Virus record (IMG/VR): IMGVR_UViG_3300028624_000003
Location: 64,001 to 128,000 of that record
DNA length: 64,000 nucleotides
From: a virus
Taxonomy: Duplodnaviria > Caudoviricetes
Reading direction: 5' to 3' (one strand)
Shown here: in pieces, positions 5,751 through 53,744 of the stretch
Layout of the letters: each line of letters starts with the position of its first letter
Numbering within the stretch: position 1 is the first letter of the stretch
Made by a program: the position numbers and the translations under genes
The notes under the pieces: model-generated
What the model saw: the letters and a program-made list of their open reading frames with translations, nothing else
What the model was told of the DNA's origin: nothing
The model's database searches: none

Positions 5751-6683
5751 ATGAATTATACACCAGATCTCGAAACCCGGATGTCGACTGATGCGGAATT
5801 TGTGTGTTCCACAGTAGTCAACGATGTCGCGTACATTACAAATGCCACAGGAATCATCACCATCGACATGCATGTCAATAATGCAGAACATCGTGCACTA
5901 GTTCAGCACGCCAAGCGCGAAGGTAAAATTCTGGTACACCACATCAACTCTCCTACACTCAAGAAGTACGATCGTGTCGATATCTACAAGAAAGAATATT
6001 CCGAGTCCATTGACGTGTTCTGGTTGGTACAGCATTCCGGGCTGTTCGACGATACTTACGCAGTACGTTTTGATGAACACCCTGCCACCTGCCCATGTTG
6101 TGGTAGCTTCACAGTGCTGGATGAACTTGGTCTACACTGCATTAATTCACGGTGTGCTGCAAAAGTGTACAGATCGCTTATGCTCTACTGTGAGTGTTTC
6201 TATTCAGAGATCATCATGTCTGACTACCTATTACAGATACTCAGACGTCTGCTTCTAAATGATATCATTTCAGGTATACCTGATTTGTATGAAGTTACGG
6301 TCGAGCAAATCGATCAGTTGCAGATACCACGAGAAGATGCAATTGAGTTCGTTGAGCTGATACAAAGTAGACGAGGACATATCTCGTTCGAAAAGTATTT
6401 GACGTCTCTTAACATCGAATATTGGGCATATCTGGAGGACTACCCACAGTCACGTTCGGATAGTCCAAACACTGCCAGAATTCCCTTACTGCGTGAGGAT
6501 TCTGGTGCATTCCCTGACGTTGCTTCTTTTTGGGACTGGATGAAGAACATCGTTGATAGTGAGAGTTCGCCTCGTCCGTACATGAACGAAAGGATGTTCT
6601 ATTTAGTCTACAGATTCTTCTCGTGTTTGGAAAACAGAAAGGACTTGTACAGGTTGGAAGAACTGGGGGTCTTTCGTAAGTAA
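5751..6683 (+). CDS. NAD-dependent DNA ligase-like C-terminal domains (OB, Zn finger, HhH) without adenylation domain
   Basis: PATCPCCGS-x10-CINSRC Zn finger, then IPDLYEVT...YLTSLNI resembling LigA HhH; no KxDG. Confidence 0.65.
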   Translation: MNYTPDLETRMSTDAEFVCSTVVNDVAYITNATGIITIDMHVNNAEHRALVQHAKREGKILVHHINSPTLKKYDRVDIYKKEYSESIDVFWLVQHSGLFDDTYAVRFDEHPATCPCCGSFTVLDELGLHCINSRCAAKVYRSLMLYCECFYSEIIMSDYLLQILRRLLLNDIISGIPDLYEVTVEQIDQLQIPREDAIEFVELIQSRRGHISFEKYLTSLNIEYWAYLEDYPQSRSDSPNTARIPLLREDSGAFPDVASFWDWMKNIVDSESSPRPYMNERMFYLVYRFFSCLENRKDLYRLEELGVFRK

Positions 6684-6685
6684 AC

Positions 6686-6716
6686 ACACTAGGTGAGGGA
6701 TTACCTCACCTAGTGT
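6686..6716 (+). terminator. Hairpin
   Basis: acactaggtgagg / cctcacctagtgt. Confidence 0.6.
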
Positions 6717-6738
6717 AAATTCATCATTATGTCAGATA

Positions 6739-6754
6739 TACATTATAATTTTGA
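6739..6754 (+). promoter_or_regulatory. Putative early promoter
   Basis: tacattat-aattt-tga. Confidence 0.55.
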
Positions 6755-6850
6755 TGACCACATGAATTTCGTGTACATTAAAACACGCTGTGCACAATAT
6801 TGTGCACATAGTCCACCAACCCTTAACACATCTCCACAGCGGAGGACCCA

Positions 6851-7324
6851 ATGGAAGAGAACATCAAGACGGTTGAAGACGCTGCACGCTTCTTCAAGGA
6901 AAAGGGCGTCACGAAGGAAAACGGCACTGTCGTGCTGGCCAAGCCTGCGTACCTCGAATTCATGGCCGGCTGCGGCATCCCGAAGAAAGCGGTCGATCAG
7001 GTCACGCAAGCCAACTCGATGCTCATCGAAGCCGGGGTGGAAGTCGCCACCGGCGTGCTCACCAGCAAGATCAACGAAGGCAAGAAGGCCGGCAAGAATC
7101 CCAAGGAAAATCCTGTCGACTCGCGTGTCATCGTCGAGACTTCTGACGGCCGCATCGAAATCGCCCAGACCAGCTACCGTACCCGCCCCAACAACATGGC
7201 AGGTCCCGGCCAGATGTCGGAATCCTTCGGTCGTACGACCGTCAACCAGCGCTTCGGTCGTGCATACCCCAAGGGTAAGCGTGCCGAAATCAGTGAGCGT
7301 ATCCGCGCTCTGATCGAAGGGTAA
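6851..7324 (+). CDS. Hypothetical, probably highly expressed basic protein
   Basis: ggagg RBS; strong C-ending codon bias as in capsid gene. Confidence 0.75.
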   Translation: MEENIKTVEDAARFFKEKGVTKENGTVVLAKPAYLEFMAGCGIPKKAVDQVTQANSMLIEAGVEVATGVLTSKINEGKKAGKNPKENPVDSRVIVETSDGRIEIAQTSYRTRPNNMAGPGQMSESFGRTTVNQRFGRAYPKGKRAEISERIRALIEG

Positions 7325-48402: not shown

Positions 48403-48505
48403 ACATCGACCTCCTGAACAATAATAAAAATCACCACACTCGGTGGAGTTATTTCCTACACGCAATGGCATATCATGTGCTCAGATCCCAACGGATTTGT
48501 GCATA

Positions 48506-48521
48506 TATATCACTATTGTGA
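48506..48521 (+). promoter_or_regulatory. Putative early promoter of chimallin
   Basis: tatatcac-tattg-tga. Confidence 0.7.
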
Positions 48522-48609
48522 ACCCTGCTCTGATTGTTTGTGCAATTGGAGTAAAAACACTAACCAAGTTCTTGGCCAAGAGAACAAAACACAGTTACGG
48601 AGAGTTACC

Positions 48610-50238
48610 ATGGGTATCAAATTTGACGGCATCGACGACGACACCGTTGCTCAGGAATCCCAGCAGAACGTTGGTGGCGTCCATGACAACGTCAGCGCTC
48701 CTCGTCGTGACCTGGGTGCCGAACGTGCTGCTCGCAGCACGGCTACTGCAGGCCGCGGGTTCGAGCAGCTCATGTATTCGCTGCAGTCCTCGAACAAGCT
48801 CACCGAGACCGCAACCGGTTTCCTTGAAAGTGTGCGCAAGCAGGTCAGCAATCAGAACAAGAAGATTCAGTTCTTCGATCTTCCGAAGACCTGCACCTCC
48901 TTCTTCGTGGATGGTGCTGAATGCGTCGGCTTCGTCTTCGAAGAAGCGCTTCGTGAATCCCAGCTCCGCAAGGGTTCGGACACGATCCTCATGGAAGTCA
49001 TGAAGGACTTCGAGACTGCCACCATCGACAAGAAGGGTGCCGAGAAGATCCTCGACATCGTGATCGTCACCTCCGACAGCTACGGTAAGAGCAACGTCTG
49101 GTCCAATTTCGTCGTGAACACTCTTCGTTCGGACGACTACGCCAGCCTGAAGTTCACCAACATGAACGCCAACAACGTGCGGTACTCCCTCGTGAGCGAC
49201 CTTCGTCAGGTGAAGGAAATGTTCTCCGACATGTCTCCTCACGCGACACCGGCGCGCATCGACTTCGGTTGCTCGGTCACCATGGAAGTGATGCCCGACG
49301 ATCGCCGCGACTACACTCGCGAAGATCATGACGAAATCCCCATCGGTGTTATCGGCGGCTACACCCGCTTCTACCTGATCGATGACCTGCAGGATGTCAA
49401 GTTCCAGCCTGTCATCTGCATCAGTGACATCCAGTCGAACATCCGGAACCATCGTGTTCTGCCCATCCTGCTTGCCAGCTTCCTTGACTACGCGGTCAAT
49501 GCGAAGGGCTGGCTTTCCCCGTACAGCCAGTTCGGTCCCAACAACCCGAACCTCGGCAACCTCTGGATCGATCCCGAAACTGACCAGCCGGTTGAGCTGG
49601 AATCTCTGGATCGTCTCGACCGCTTCGTGCGTGCCAAGTTCCTCGAACCCGTGGTCGTCTGCGAAATCCAGCCTGGCCGTGCGGGTATCCCGTCGCTGTG
49701 GCGCTACGCCGATCCGAAGCAGCAGGGCTTCATGCTTCAGGATCTCGCAGAATACCTGAACGCTCCTCAGATCGCAGATCTCGGCGAGCTCTTCGTGCCT
49801 CACTACGAACATCTGTCGTACTCCGGCTACGTTCAGGACCGTGGGGTCTGGATCGATACCCGCGAAATCGACTACTTCCGTGCCATCGGCATCACCCGTG
49901 ATCGTGATCTGCGTGATCGGTTCATCATCCCCGAAGACGACATGTCCGCAGAAATCGACAACATCAAGGAACTCGGTTTCAAGGAAGTCCGTCGCATCTG
50001 GACCACGTACCCCTGCAGCATCGCTACCAACAGCCTCGAACAGATCCTTGTTCACATGGGTGCTGGTGGTGGTCTCGCGCTTCGTACCGACTACAAGCAG
50101 CGCATGACGGTGAGTGTTTCCAGCTACACCGACCTCGGTCGCGGCATGCGCGACATCCTGCAGCGCAACCAGGTTACCAACCGGTTCCCGCTGATGGAAC
50201 GTGGTCGACGCAGCCTGCGAAACCTCAGCGGTCGCTAG
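48610..50238 (+). CDS. chmA: Probable chimallin (phage nucleus shell protein)
   Basis: 542 aa, extreme codon bias, early promoter, directly upstream of nvRNAP beta'-like gene as in phiKZ gp54-gp55; GY...DTREIDY motif resembles chimallins. Confidence 0.72.
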   Translation: MGIKFDGIDDDTVAQESQQNVGGVHDNVSAPRRDLGAERAARSTATAGRGFEQLMYSLQSSNKLTETATGFLESVRKQVSNQNKKIQFFDLPKTCTSFFVDGAECVGFVFEEALRESQLRKGSDTILMEVMKDFETATIDKKGAEKILDIVIVTSDSYGKSNVWSNFVVNTLRSDDYASLKFTNMNANNVRYSLVSDLRQVKEMFSDMSPHATPARIDFGCSVTMEVMPDDRRDYTREDHDEIPIGVIGGYTRFYLIDDLQDVKFQPVICISDIQSNIRNHRVLPILLASFLDYAVNAKGWLSPYSQFGPNNPNLGNLWIDPETDQPVELESLDRLDRFVRAKFLEPVVVCEIQPGRAGIPSLWRYADPKQQGFMLQDLAEYLNAPQIADLGELFVPHYEHLSYSGYVQDRGVWIDTREIDYFRAIGITRDRDLRDRFIIPEDDMSAEIDNIKELGFKEVRRIWTTYPCSIATNSLEQILVHMGAGGGLALRTDYKQRMTVSVSSYTDLGRGMRDILQRNQVTNRFPLMERGRRSLRNLSGR

Positions 50239-50287: not shown

Positions 50288-50329
50288 CTATTTATCTACC
50301 CACGGTCTTAATTTTTCAGGGGGATAAAG

Positions 50330-51637
50330 TTGAAGAAGTCCAGCGTGTTCAGTAAGAAGAATCTGATCAGACTGATCGATTTCGATAAACTGCATGCCGA
50401 TTCTCCTGGGGCAAGAGCACTCAATGACTCTGACTTAACAGGACGAAAACAAGCAGCAGAACGAATAAGTCAGGCGTTCTACGACATTGAAGCAGAACTA
50501 GGGTTTGTAGCTTCTTGTCAATGCAAAGAGTATCGAGGCAACTACTACGCGGGACATGTCTGCAAGATCTGTGGTACTGTGGTATCTACTGAATTTGCAG
50601 AAAATATCGAGCACGTGAATTGGCTGATCCTACCAGATCACGTCCCGCCTGTCATGCACCCGGTATTCTTTGCTGCACTGAACTCATTCCTGGGAAAAGT
50701 CAAAGTCAACGACGCAAAGCTGGGGAAGAAAAGTATCCCACTTCTGCAGTCTATACTGGATCCCAGTGAAGAACTATTCGAGCCAGTAAAGACACACATC
50801 AGAGCGCAAGGCTTCCGGTACTTCTACAAGCACTGCAAAGAAATCATGAACTTCTTCTTTGAAGTCTATCCAAAGACAAAAAGTAAGAAGGACGTCATAC
50901 ACATCCGTGCTCTTTATGAAGAGTACAAAGACAGGATGTGGGTCAAAAAGATACCGGCACTACATCCTACACTCACGCCACAGGCCAAAGAGTGCAGGGT
51001 ACGTACAATCGACCATGCTGCCGGTTACATCATGTCAGCAGCTGCTGACCTCTCTGCTCTATCCTACGAATCCAAGCGATGTATTACTGATTCGAAGTAT
51101 GTCGACCGTCAGCTATGGAAGATGTACGTCAACGTCATCAAGTACACTGAACAGATTCTCGAGAAGAAGTTCGGTGACAAATATGCACACGCTAGACGCC
51201 ACGTCATGGGCGCACGGATTCATTTTTCTGCCAGATCCGTCATCGTACCTATCGTAGAGCCTCACATGGGTGATGAGATTCATCTCCCATGGAAGATCGC
51301 ACTAGGTGGCCTCAAACTCGAGATTCTGAACATCTTGACCACTCGCAGTGTGATAGATGTAGAAGATGAACATGGCGAGCGTGTAAAGAGACCGCACACA
51401 ATCGCCGAGGCCACAGCCAAATATATGCGGGCACTCGTCGTATACGACGAAGACATCAAGAAGGTCATCGATCTCTTGATCAAAGAGTGTCCGTGTAAGG
51501 GTCTACCAATACTTTGCGGGCGCAACCCGACGCTCGTACTGGGTGCAATTCAGCTTCTGTACTTTACCAAGGTAAAGACGGATATGGCAGATGAAACCAT
51601 CGCCATATCTCCTCGAATCTGCAAAGCACCCAATGCT
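50330..51637 (+). CDS. nvRNAP beta'-like subunit (phiKZ gp55-like), exon 1
   Basis: Zn ribbon CQC...CKIC, GARIHFSARSVI, GRNPTL; ends KAPNA, the start of NADFDGD. Confidence 0.88.
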
Positions 51638-52573
51638 AAATACAACTCCTCGTTGCACATCGCCCCTAGCAGGAGGCGTACATGCAGCAGTTCGTCAATT
51701 TACCTGGAAAATACTCAGGATATTCAATATCCGCGGACGGTAGAATTCTCGACAACTCTACCGGACAGTTGGTAGTTCCTACCAAAGGTAAAAATACTCC
51801 GTACTACGGGGTCACAATGCGTCTAGTTGGTGATGCTCGAAGTACTACACAACTAGTGCATCGACTGATCGCATTGGCCTTTGTTCCAAATGAAACAGGA
51901 ATATCAGCAGACGAGTTACAGGTCAATCACATCAATGGGAACAAACTCGACAACCGTCCATGTAATCTTGAGTGGGTCACTCAGCAACAAAATTGCGCGC
52001 ATGCGTATCGAACAGGTTTGCGAAACGACAATAAACCTATTCGCATGGTTGCAGAGAATACAGGTGAGACTAGTATAGTCTACAGCTTATCCGAAGCTGC
52101 TAGACTGCTAGGTGTGCACCCTGCCTCACTTCATGAGCACATGAACACAGAACGTCGACAATGTTTACCATATCGTGGATACTACGTAACTTATCACGAC
52201 GATCGTCTAGATCGTTTTCAGAATAGGGTACGGCGTATGTGCGAAGGGAGTTGGTAAATTGGCTCGCGCAGAAGTAATTCTGTGACGATAATCTCCTTAA
52301 TTGCTGGGAACCCCTTAGAGCTCTCGTAGCTACAACGTAAGGATGAAATATGCCTAAGCGTGACAGCTCAAAAATACGAGAGATTGGGCAATCAGCAGCC
52401 AAGCTCCGAATAGGAGAAGGTTCAACGACTATTCCTGAAATGGAAGTACAGACTAAGCAGTCTGGGAATAGGAGACACCCTACTGGGGTGAAGATATAGT
52501 CTCATCTTTAGTGAAAGCTAAAGCTGCAGGTAATGCTGCGAGTACCATCTAGCGAATGGTACTGAAGATAATG
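51638..52573 (+). mobile_element. Group I intron 1 with HNH endonuclease ORF upstream of the core (P1 region)
   Basis: Upstream exon ends in U; P aattgctgggaa 52299, Q aatcagcagc 52390, R gttcaacgactat 52420, S aagatatagtc 52491; P3 tctcct/aggaga; terminal G 52573. Confidence 0.9.
51682..52257 (+). CDS. Intron-encoded HNH homing endonuclease (NUMOD4-HNH-NUMOD1-like)
   Basis: YSISADGRI, VHRLIALAF, QVNHINGNKLDNRPCNLEWVT, YSLSEAARLLG; aggagg RBS. Confidence 0.9.
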   Translation: MQQFVNLPGKYSGYSISADGRILDNSTGQLVVPTKGKNTPYYGVTMRLVGDARSTTQLVHRLIALAFVPNETGISADELQVNHINGNKLDNRPCNLEWVTQQQNCAHAYRTGLRNDNKPIRMVAENTGETSIVYSLSEAARLLGVHPASLHEHMNTERRQCLPYRGYYVTYHDDRLDRFQNRVRRMCEGSW

Positions 52574-52582
52574 GATTTCGAT
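52574..52582 (+). CDS. 9-nt micro-exon encoding DFD of the RNAP catalytic motif (exon 2)
   Basis: gat ttc gat, preceded by intron-terminal G; pairs with IGS gtcgaaat 52589-52596 with a U.G pair at the splice site. Confidence 0.87.
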
Positions 52583-53540
52583 TCACAGGTCGAAATAAAA
52601 TCCCGGAATAAAGCAGGGACGGTCTGCTCGACCCAATCTGAACCGAAGGCTACTAGGGATAGTAGTCAGGGGCAACGCGTAGTCTCAGGGCTAGAACAGC
52701 TATCAGGGACCACGAGGCCGGGACATTCGAGAGTATTCGCACTGAGGAGAACTAGTGGAGAATACTGTGGAAATTCCTGGGTATCCAGGATACCGAGCAT
52801 CACGAGACGGACACGTCTGGAGTACATACAGCAATAAGTGGTTGTGCGAGATGCTGCACCGGCGAGGATACCCTCAGGTGTTGCTGAAAATCGACAAATC
52901 GACCTACAGATTGCGGTATGTTCATCGGTTAGTAGCACTGGCATTTATCCCAAATCCAAAACTGATGACTCAGGTCAATCATATCGATGGCAATAAACAG
53001 AACAATTGCGTCGATAATTTGGAGTGGGTAGATAACCTAGAGAATGCGCGACATGCGATGGCTCATGGGCTGATGCCACATGCAAAAATCGATGAGCCGA
53101 CAGCTCACGTCATTTGTCAGAGATTGGAGAATGGCGAAAAAGTGGTGGATATTGCAAGGGACTTAAATGTACCCTACTATACCGTACACGCCATTCGGCT
53201 AGGTAGAAACTGGAAAGAAGTATCTACTCAGTACACAATCCCTGGGAAAAGAAAACGTAGAGTTGTCTTTACACCAGAAGAAGTCAGACACATCTATTAC
53301 AACGCGGTTGTGAAGGGGTATCCAATTGGAACTCTAGCGGAGCAATACCAGGTGGATCCAGAGCTTATACGCAGGATTGCTTCTGGTAAAAACTACCGAA
53401 AAATAACCCGAGAGATGTGCGATGCTTTCGAATGAAAACGTACGCTGAGCTGCGCTTATACGAGCTCCTACCGAAAGTAGGACCCAGAAATGGGAAGGCG
53501 CAGAACTATCGGATAAAAAGCCGGTAGGGTAACATAACTG
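52583..53540 (+). mobile_element. Group I intron 2 with HNH endonuclease ORF in the P8 loop
   Basis: P1 with U.G; P3 tcccgg/ccggga; P7 gcgta/tacgc; P8 cattcga/tcgaatg enclosing the ORF; P10 tcac/gtga; terminal G 53540. Confidence 0.85.
52755..53435 (+). CDS. Intron-encoded HNH homing endonuclease (NUMOD4-HNH with C-terminal HTH-like repeats)
   Basis: IPGYPGYRASRDG, VHRLVALAFIPNP, QVNHIDGNKQNNCVDNLEWV; gaggag RBS, GTG start. Confidence 0.9.
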   Translation: MENTVEIPGYPGYRASRDGHVWSTYSNKWLCEMLHRRGYPQVLLKIDKSTYRLRYVHRLVALAFIPNPKLMTQVNHIDGNKQNNCVDNLEWVDNLENARHAMAHGLMPHAKIDEPTAHVICQRLENGEKVVDIARDLNVPYYTVHAIRLGRNWKEVSTQYTIPGKRKRRVVFTPEEVRHIYYNAVVKGYPIGTLAEQYQVDPELIRRIASGKNYRKITREMCDAFE

Positions 53541-53744
53541 GGTGACGAAATGTACATCATCTTCATCAAGGAGATGGGTATGGTTCCGTTTCTACAAACA
53601 CTACACCCACGGATGACGATGATTTCTAAGTCGGACTTGTCGGTAGGCGAACTGGTCATGCCTACAAGTCAGGCTACGGTACATCTCAACTCATTCCTCA
53701 ACATGGGGTTGGATGCACCGAGATCGCAGAGATTCGAACTATAA
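53541..53744 (+). CDS. nvRNAP beta'-like subunit, exon 3
   Basis: Begins ggt gac gaa atg (GDEM), completing NADFDGDEM; spliced product 506 aa. Confidence 0.87.
   Translation, partial: GDEMYIIFIKEMGMVPFLQTLHPRMTMISKSDLSVGELVMPTSQATVHLNSFLNMGLDAPRSQRFEL

Follow-up and report, generated by a model that had tools for sequence, protein, structure and literature searches.

In the present study, we analysed a 64,000-nt stretch of phage DNA (hereafter the window), which comprises bases 64001-128000 of the 220,982-bp IMG/VR genome IMGVR_UViG_3300028624_000003, a record with direct terminal repeats that is rated complete. A gene in this window for a subunit of a multisubunit RNA polymerase (RNAP) is interrupted twice within the codons of its active-site motif, NADFDGD. 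At a probability of roughly 85%, we regard the two interruptions as independent mobile group I introns that lie 9 bp apart, the removal of both of which yields a 506-aa subunit with an intact magnesium-binding triad. The segment between them is a micro-exon of nine nucleotides.

A polymerase gene divided within its magnesium-binding motif

Judging from its sequence, the interrupted gene is homologous to phiKZ gp55, which forms the beta'-N subunit in the non-virion multisubunit RNA polymerase (nvRNAP). It is matched at E 2e-69 by phrog_2987 ("RNA polymerase beta subunit") and at E 8e-27 by chain A of PDB 7OGP, which is a fusion of PHIKZ055 and PHIKZ056.1 (i.e. gp55+gp56.1), while a tblastn search with the gene matched 247 phage records, with phiKZ-like phages at the top at approximately 26% identity. 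By homology to phiKZ gp55, the spliced product may have a role in late transcription. The gene and its interruptions are arranged as follows; here and below, a slash between residues or codons marks the position of an intron.

50330..51637, plus strand: exon 1, gp55-like nvRNAP beta'-N, with a TTG start at 50330 and 436 codons, ending ...ICKAPNA (aat gct)
51638..52573, plus strand: intron 1, group I, 936 nt, following U51637 and ending with G52573 (A/D site)
52574..52582, plus strand: micro-exon gatttcgat, by direct reading Asp-Phe-Asp of NADFDGD
52583..53540, plus strand: intron 2, group I and IA-like with extra helices between P7 and P3', 958 nt, following U52582 and ending with G53540 (D/G site)
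53541..53744, plus strand: exon 3, 67 codons and the stop at 53742-53744, starting GDEMYIIFIKEMGMV (GDEM; DNA ggtgacgaaatg) and ending RFEL

The joined exons give 436+3+67 = 506 codons in frame with one NADFDGD motif, and direct reading together with the alignment to the intronless homologue P0003 showed that the magnesium-binding loop is rebuilt only once both introns are removed. The micro-exon codes for two of the three magnesium-binding aspartates, and GAYTTYGAY occurs a single time on the plus strand between the two large exons. Both intervening segments are preceded by U (51637, 52582) and have G as their last base (52573, 53540). The exon coordinates, junctions, reading frame, and 506-aa product that had been read from the letters in the original prediction were all confirmed in this manner.

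In a homologue search covering 5.8 billion proteins, five uninterrupted full-length homologues were found (P0003, P0004, P0005, P0019, and P0022), all of which carry N[AI]DFDGDE[ML] unbroken, reading ...ICKAPNADFDGDEMY... in this region. The closest comparison was provided by P0003 (507 aa, 68% identical), the coding DNA of which (L006) is intronless and reads aatgctgactttgatggtgacgaaatg. Exon 1 aligned to its residues 4-437 with 68% identity and exon 3 to its residues 441-507 with 76% identity (E 2e-36), so that residues 438-440, namely DFD, are the sole gap, and this gap is filled by the micro-exon. Gene callers had been expected to overlook an exon of this size, and the database proteins for the interrupted gene are indeed truncated or run into an intron (P0002, 473 aa; P0007, 433 aa).

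The boundaries are also supported by natural alleles, which we traced by placing the Logan contigs of four sequencing runs (X2, X3, X5, and X6) on the locus. In a DNA contig of run X2, position 52582 is joined to 53544 via GGA, so that exactly 52583-53540 is lost and the codon ggt is changed synonymously to gga, and the end of intron 1 is still present. An allele of run X5 has 40 nt in place of 52733-53416 and thus represents intron 2 without its open reading frame (ORF) but with the P8 stem kept. Similarly, 45-46 nt replace 51641-52176/7 in runs X5 and X6, which gives an ORF-less intron 1, as is also found in L005, a near-identical variant from a Logan assembly. In the more distant locus L016 (55% identical protein), intron 1 is absent and an ORF-less 349-nt intron occupies the identical D/G site (R1 covariance model described below, 55.8 bits). 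Since the X2 allele lacks intron 2, L016 has intron 2 only, P0003 has neither, and ORF-less forms exist, the two introns are regarded as independent mobile units with the edges as first read.

Anatomy of the two ribozymes

The following elements were located within intron 1.

51643..51650, plus strand: 5' strand of the L1 hairpin, forming 8 bp by eye with 52246-52253 and closing the loop that holds the ORF
51682..52257, plus strand: HNH homing-endonuclease ORF 1, 191 aa, with the ribosome-binding site aggagg (Pfam HNH_3 5e-11; phrog_59 5e-38)
52242..52523, plus strand: catalytic core P2-P9 (Rfam RF00028, Intron_gpI)
52256..52263, plus strand: putative internal guide, assigned by eye, consisting of the P10 strand aaauu and the P1 strand GGC

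Both insertions had been proposed to be group I introns, and for intron 1 this was borne out by a catalytic core that scored 84.4 bits with RF00028 (gathering score 50) over model positions 1-253, which is the full model. ORF 1 is looped out of the P1 loop upstream of the core, its stop codon TAA (52255-57) lies within the internal guide, and its product is 46% identical to phiKZ gp56 over 92 aa. The phage phiKZ shares further features with the present one: the same gene (26% identical protein) contains an intron inside NADFDGD with an RF00028 core (75.6 bits), the layout is likewise gp55, the HNH gene gp56 upstream of the core, the core, and gp56.1 starting with ADFDGD, and the 3' tails of the phiKZ intron and intron 1 are alignable by eye. 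These comparisons assign intron 1 to a Tetrahymena-type (RF00028) ribozyme homologous to the phiKZ gp55/gp56 intron. In contrast, phiKZ has a single intron, located at N/A as aat/...acg/gctgattttgac with a 3' exon that begins with gct, whereas intron 1 of the present phage is situated one codon downstream and is followed 9 nt later by a second, unrelated intron.

The 5' architecture of intron 1 (P1, P10, and L1) is presented as the model most consistent with its ORF-less variants and with the corresponding introns of Raoultella phage VB_ZK_P1, the Logan contig L015, and the 256-kb scaffold L017. In this model, exon GCU 51635-37 would pair with GGC 52261-63 to form a P1 of 3 bp with U51637.G52261, and aaauu 52256-60 is complementary to gauuu 52574-78, the first five bases of the micro-exon, as P10; both pairings were assigned by eye. 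The position of GGC is kept in the present phage, L005, intron b of L015, L017, and the Raoultella phage, while intron a of L015 shows a compensatory CCU/GGG pair. The L1 helix is retained in ORF-less L005, where it is lengthened to 10 bp with a compensatory C-G to U-A change, and a hairpin occupies the equivalent place in intron b of L015. A candidate guide of the form GGU-aa-AUUGG was also considered; its AUUGG part is weaker in L005, and G52253 is required by the L1 hairpin.

The elements of intron 2 were as follows.

52589..52596, plus strand: internal guide gucgaaau, forming P1 of 8 bp with auuucgau 52575-82, with U52582.G52589
52598..52723, plus strand: P3-P4-P5-P6, 5' strand of P7, P7.1/P7.2, and P3' (match of model R1)
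52724..52730, plus strand: 5' strand of P8, cauucga, with 7 perfect bp by eye to ucgaaug 53428-53434 and ORF 2 in its loop
52755..53435, plus strand: HNH homing-endonuclease ORF 2, 226 aa, in the P8 loop, with a GTG start and the ribosome-binding site gaggag (HNH_3 5e-9; phrog_59 1e-52)
53441..53445, plus strand: 3' strand of P7, uacgc, pairing with gcgua 52677-52681
53446..53540, plus strand: P9-type hairpins and 3' tail (fold -37.9 kcal/mol, z -3.2), ending with omega-G 53540

Matches to 52598-52682 were obtained by blastn ("distant" mode) in non-coding DNA of other phages, namely Aeromonas phages PS1, PS2, CF8, ZPAH34, and AhC3_1, Raoultella VB_ZK_P1, Listeria LIS04, and Bacillus BpSp. We aligned seven relatives from other phages, with the window sequence left out, and built the covariance model R1, which covers the 5' domain only and contains P3, P4, P5, and P6 as well as two additional helices that lie between P7 and P3'. 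In the R1 structure, 22 of the 31 pairs had changes on both sides with 95.7% of cells paired, values that were reached by none of 500 shuffles and that collapsed once the partner columns were slid by 1-3 columns. The model matched 52598-52723 over its full length (1-139) with 79.8 bits (E 1.3e-20), and this was its only match in the window and in the whole genome.

The family was also compared by anchor-based extraction. Pairing was perfect for both P3 and P7 in 11 members of the family, among which P3 showed five pair types and P7 two (GCGUA/UACGC and GCAUA/UAUGC), and a 3'-tail hairpin with an auaaaaag loop was common to the relatives with a different stem sequence. P7 (52677-81/53441-45) crosses P3 (52601-06/52718-23), and the insertion therefore contains the group I core in the order P3-P4-P5-P6-P7-P3'-P8-P7', with a pseudoknot that is backed by covariation. 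The splice-site elements were also found: P1 with U.G, omega-G at the 3' end, and a potential P10 between ucac 52583-86 and guga 53542-45. The minimum-energy structure of 52570-52600 in RNAfold was the P1 hairpin itself (-7.2 kcal/mol, z -2.65), and the guide covaries with the exon, which has U paired to a guide A in intron c of L015 and C paired to a guide G in the present phage.

In the Michel-Westhof classification, subgroup IA of the group I introns is recognised by additional helices located between P7 and P3'. By these structural comparisons, intron 2 is a member of an IA-like family that is distinct from that of intron 1 and has been overlooked by Rfam. The products of ORF 2 and ORF 1 are 38% identical over 115 aa. 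Two members of the intron 2 family have other gene neighbourhoods: that of Listeria phage LIS04 (L007:1071-2360) lies between genes annotated as an "intein splicing region protein", an endonuclease, and a "Hint domain protein", and that of Bacillus phage vB_BpuM-BpSp (L008:1927-2331) is located just upstream of DNA gyrase subunit A.

These anatomies bear on the explanation that the insertions belong to another class of element, be it inteins, group II introns, or homing-endonuclease genes that stand free between gene halves translated on their own. HNH genes can be free-standing in phages, and gene callers annotate the pieces of this locus as separate genes. The U/G boundary rule and group I cores were nevertheless found in both insertions, together with a P1 with U.G in intron 2 and a candidate one in intron 1, and neither a reverse transcriptase, nor a 5' GUGYG, nor a domain V of group II introns was detected, which makes this explanation scarcely credible. 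Regarding inteins in particular, this possibility was rejected on the basis of in-frame stops (51775 and 52837) and of the insertion lengths, 936 and 958 nt, which are not both multiples of three.

Proposed splicing and retention of the micro-exon

Several observations weigh against the interpretation of the locus as two functional introns. Rfam gave no match at E<=10 for intron 2, whether searched whole or in two halves, and RF00028 support is thus confined to intron 1. The absence of covariance-model support had been named beforehand in the original prediction as a result that would speak against it; on this point, the custom model R1 finds intron 2 although Rfam is silent. Since Rfam also misses all of the relatives of intron 2 in Aeromonas, Listeria, and Bacillus phages, we consider its silence to be a gap in model coverage rather than counter-evidence. 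The best conserved P1 of intron 1 has only 3 bp, and its assignment is accordingly tentative; the alternative guides GGCGU at 51675-79 and 52232-36 are still candidates, which we set aside because, unlike GGC 52261-63, they are unconserved in L005, L015, L017, and the Raoultella phage.

With respect to RNA, the sole RNA run examined was X3, a metatranscriptome of activated sludge, for which Logan contigs and not raw reads were used. Its contig pieces cover 50301-50677, 50966-51522, 51659-52153, 52595-53449, and 53439-53678, and none of its contigs spans a splice junction. The piece 53439-53678 is unspliced across the boundary between intron 2 and exon 3 and could be derived from DNA or precursor RNA, and the contig set as a whole says nothing for or against splicing. 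In addition, a phiKZ transcriptome obtained by Oxford Nanopore sequencing in 2024 was reportedly without spliced reads for the predicted phiKZ introns (PMC10914365). The efficient splicing of a phiKZ-type intron consequently has little direct support in the literature, and we found no direct RNA evidence. For the predicted phiKZ intron (L003:3733-5100), the solved nvRNAP structure 7OGP nonetheless holds a gp55+gp56.1 fusion chain.

An alternative explanation is that intron 2 or both introns have lost the ability to splice. The gene would then be decaying or split, and its fragments, namely the 481-aa ORF that reads through and the 64-aa ORF that begins at ATG 53550, would act separately or not at all. 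Besides the lack of an Rfam match for intron 2 and of a spliced contig in X3, this explanation may draw on the P7.1/P7.2 region of intron 2, which is without the gaauauaau element common to its relatives. It is, however, very unlikely in view of the core helices P1 and P3-P8, which are all intact with perfect pairing, and of the genome record, which is complete with terminal repeats. The core of the ribozyme and the stem of P8 are retained in near-identical ORF-less alleles, which points to selection acting on the RNA, and a two-barrel RNAP without DFD has no magnesium-binding triad. The intact anatomy of the ribozymes, the fact that ORF-less alleles conserve the cores, and the requirement for DFD lead us to infer that both introns self-splice in vivo.

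If both introns are active, each would find its own 5' splice site by its own guide, with GGC pairing to GCU in intron 1 and gucgaaau to auuucgau in intron 2, and the double excision would join NA-DFD-GDEM. Bases 52575-78 would be sought by two helices at once, P10 of intron 1 and P1 of intron 2, which makes these pairings mutually competitive. Since the latter helix is stronger and is required in both steps of intron 2, either intron 2 is expected to be excised first or P10 of intron 1 is dispensable; the competition probably favours the departure of intron 2 before intron 1.

The same short exon raises the possibility of exon skipping as the main outcome, in which both introns and the micro-exon leave together to give an in-frame NA/GDEM product without DFD. 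The subunit would then be catalytically dead or regulatory, and the full-length mRNA only a minor fraction. Skipping between tandem group I introns has been documented for Twort orf142 (23-nt exon), Coxiella 23S rRNA (34-nt exon), and engineered Tetrahymena pairs (PMC10136302), as well as for the terminase gene of phage SIOphi (PMC11878797), and it would preserve the frame here because the exon length of 9 nt is divisible by three. We nevertheless consider it improbable for the present gene. The two ribozymes are unrelated, the guide gucgaaau cannot pair with aaugcu, and the P10 strand aaauu cannot pair with ggugac. With guides that are unlike, neither of which pairs with the exon partner of the other, inclusion of the micro-exon should be favoured, as has been reported for engineered tandem introns with unlike splice-site recognition elements (PMC10136302), and the two guides may therefore keep the micro-exon from being skipped. 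Furthermore, DFD is kept in all intronless homologues, and no second gp55-like gene was found in the phage.

Related loci, precedents, and implications

A singular arrangement had been implied for this locus, and this part of the original prediction has to be toned down, since relatives have a 12-nt micro-exon or micro-exons of 6 and 9 nt in the same motif. This motif is a hot spot for introns among the relatives, with the following positions.

phiKZ: N/A, no short exon
Present window: A/D and D/G, 9-nt exon
L016: D/G only, no short exon
Aeromonas phages and Erwinia phage pEa_SNUABM_54: G/D only, no short exon
Raoultella phage VB_ZK_P1, Klebsiella phage phiKp_32, and 256-kb scaffold L017: A/D and G/D, 12-nt exon gattt(t/c)gacggt
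L015: three introns, ...cct/aatgct/gattttgat/, 6-nt and 9-nt exons

Raoultella VB_ZK_P1 (PV662128.1; L012:1046-1734) and Klebsiella phiKp_32 (LC768500.1, 15635-16295) each have two ORF-less introns around the 12-nt exon gattttgacggt (DFDG), and these phages, L017, and L015 share with the present phage the gene, both intron families and their order, and the A/D position of intron 1. The second intron at G/D of the Raoultella and Klebsiella phages and L017 uses a re-targeted guide, GCCG.

The most elaborate locus was found in L015 (6230-7051, a Logan contig of SRR29305601), the protein of which (P0007) is 57% identical to exon 1. Its exon 1 ends with gctcct at 6254 and is followed by intron a (6255-6573), the exon aatgct (6574-6579), intron b (6580-6942), the exon gattttgat (6943-6951), and intron c, which starts at 6952 and is interrupted by the contig end. 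This layout is supported by two RF00028 matches (69.6 and 85.2 bits) and an R1 match broken by the contig end. L015 therefore has a 9-nt exon of identical design to that of the present phage, plus a third intron at P/N that leaves the 6-nt aatgct.

In the Aeromonas phages, an ORF-less element of approximately 260 nt from the intron 2 family splits GDFDG/DQ in an RNAP gene. This intron (L009:1957-2214) is located at the same place in PS2, ACP1, ZPAH34, CF8, and AhC3_1, where it is unannotated and the downstream exon is called as a separate small gene. In a gp55-like gene of a 326-kb ENA contig (L018:6161-7780), one RF00028 intron with an HNH ORF follows GRNPTFI, approximately 40 codons before the motif, an intron of the intron 2 family is located at G/D, and the middle exon is approximately 120 nt.

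Among previously described systems, tandem group I introns around a short exon are known from Twort orf142, which has three group I introns and a 23-nt exon, and from the 23S rRNA gene of Coxiella burnetii, with a 34-nt exon (PMC10136302). The Coxiella pair belongs to different group I subgroups, as in the present phage, while the two introns of Twort are close paralogues and skip the exon (PMC10136302). A small exon between tandem group I introns has also been noted in phiNIT1 (PMC11878797). Compared with Twort and Coxiella, the present locus differs by a 9-nt exon of under half the length, overlapping ribozyme pairings, an exon that codes for catalytic residues, and an HNH gene for each intron.

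In the RNAP largest-subunit gene polr2a of Bodo saltans virus, there are three adjacent group I introns with a homing endonuclease, the splicing of which was confirmed by reverse transcription PCR (Deeg et al. 2018, PMC5871332). That virus is a eukaryotic giant virus with a single intron family made up of a parent and ORF-less offspring, whereas the virus in the present case is a bacteriophage and its ribozymes represent two unrelated families, each with an endonuclease of its own. An HNH endonuclease encoded in a group I intron of a jumbo-phage virion RNAP gene is known from gp210 of PhiPA3 (Birkholz et al. 2024, PMC11620839), in which the intron is single and the RNAP gene a different one. 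Such intron endonucleases have been described as weapons in the competition between co-infecting jumbo phages (PhiPA3 gp210, PMC11620839), and a comparable role is plausible for elements of this type.

Recent jumbo-phage reviews, which we searched on introns, made no mention of micro-exons. The 9-nt micro-exon is, together with the 6- and 9-nt exons of L015, the shortest among the phage cases found. The locus shows, in very compact form, behaviour already known from selfish introns and is one instance of a wider intron pile-up that is undescribed for phages.

Considering the positions occupied in the relatives, we tentatively raise the possibility, which we regard as doubtful at present, that the NADFDGD codons of gp55-type genes are a shared landing pad, on which at least two unrelated ribozyme-endonuclease lineages stack at one-codon spacing and short exons impose an obligatory downstream-first order of splicing. 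If so, the landing pad would comprise the sites P/N, N/A, A/D, D/G, and G/D with up to three introns, and the guides would be re-targeted by 3 nt. Exons of 6-12 nt would make the upstream P10 and the downstream P1 compete for the same bases, and expression of the polymerase would depend on a timed cascade of ribozymes.

Aside from this possibility, the locus has practical consequences for annotation, in that an essential polymerase subunit is reported as truncated or read-through and the 9-nt exon is never seen. The intron arrangement is unannotated in the deposited records of relatives; the error extends to deposited Raoultella, Klebsiella, and Aeromonas phage genomes as "hypothetical proteins", and the Raoultella VB_ZK_P1 and Klebsiella phiKp_32 records have "hypothetical protein" pieces or no annotation at the intron locus. 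From the viewpoint of intron detection, RF00028 of Rfam is blind to the whole intron 2 family. The two ribozymes together have a footprint longer than the 9-nt exon, which makes this exon naturally suited to studies of the order of splicing and the avoidance of skipping. In terms of intron ecology, the target sites of the two endonucleases are 9 bp apart, the alleles in the population cover every combination of intron and ORF, and the positions of related introns differ by exactly one codon, which makes the locus a tractable system for the competition and re-targeting of homing elements within one conserved active-site motif.

Regarding the wider genome context, megablast of the locus against phage records gave no match, and a search of viral contigs found no related locus with exon 1 and no exact 28-mer of intron 2. 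The upstream ORF (window 48475-50238, 587 aa), at the position of the chimallin gp54 in phiKZ, was not significantly similar to phiKZ gp54 in BLASTP and had no PHROG match. Outside the window, the same genome contains a third group I intron (L001:533-1801 = G000:C1:186416-187684), which scored 90.8 bits with RF00028, carries a 339-aa HNH ORF, and interrupts an RNAP beta-subunit gene (phrog_3148). Because the cores are nearly identical, this intron is regarded as a paralogous copy of intron 1 in a second polymerase gene.

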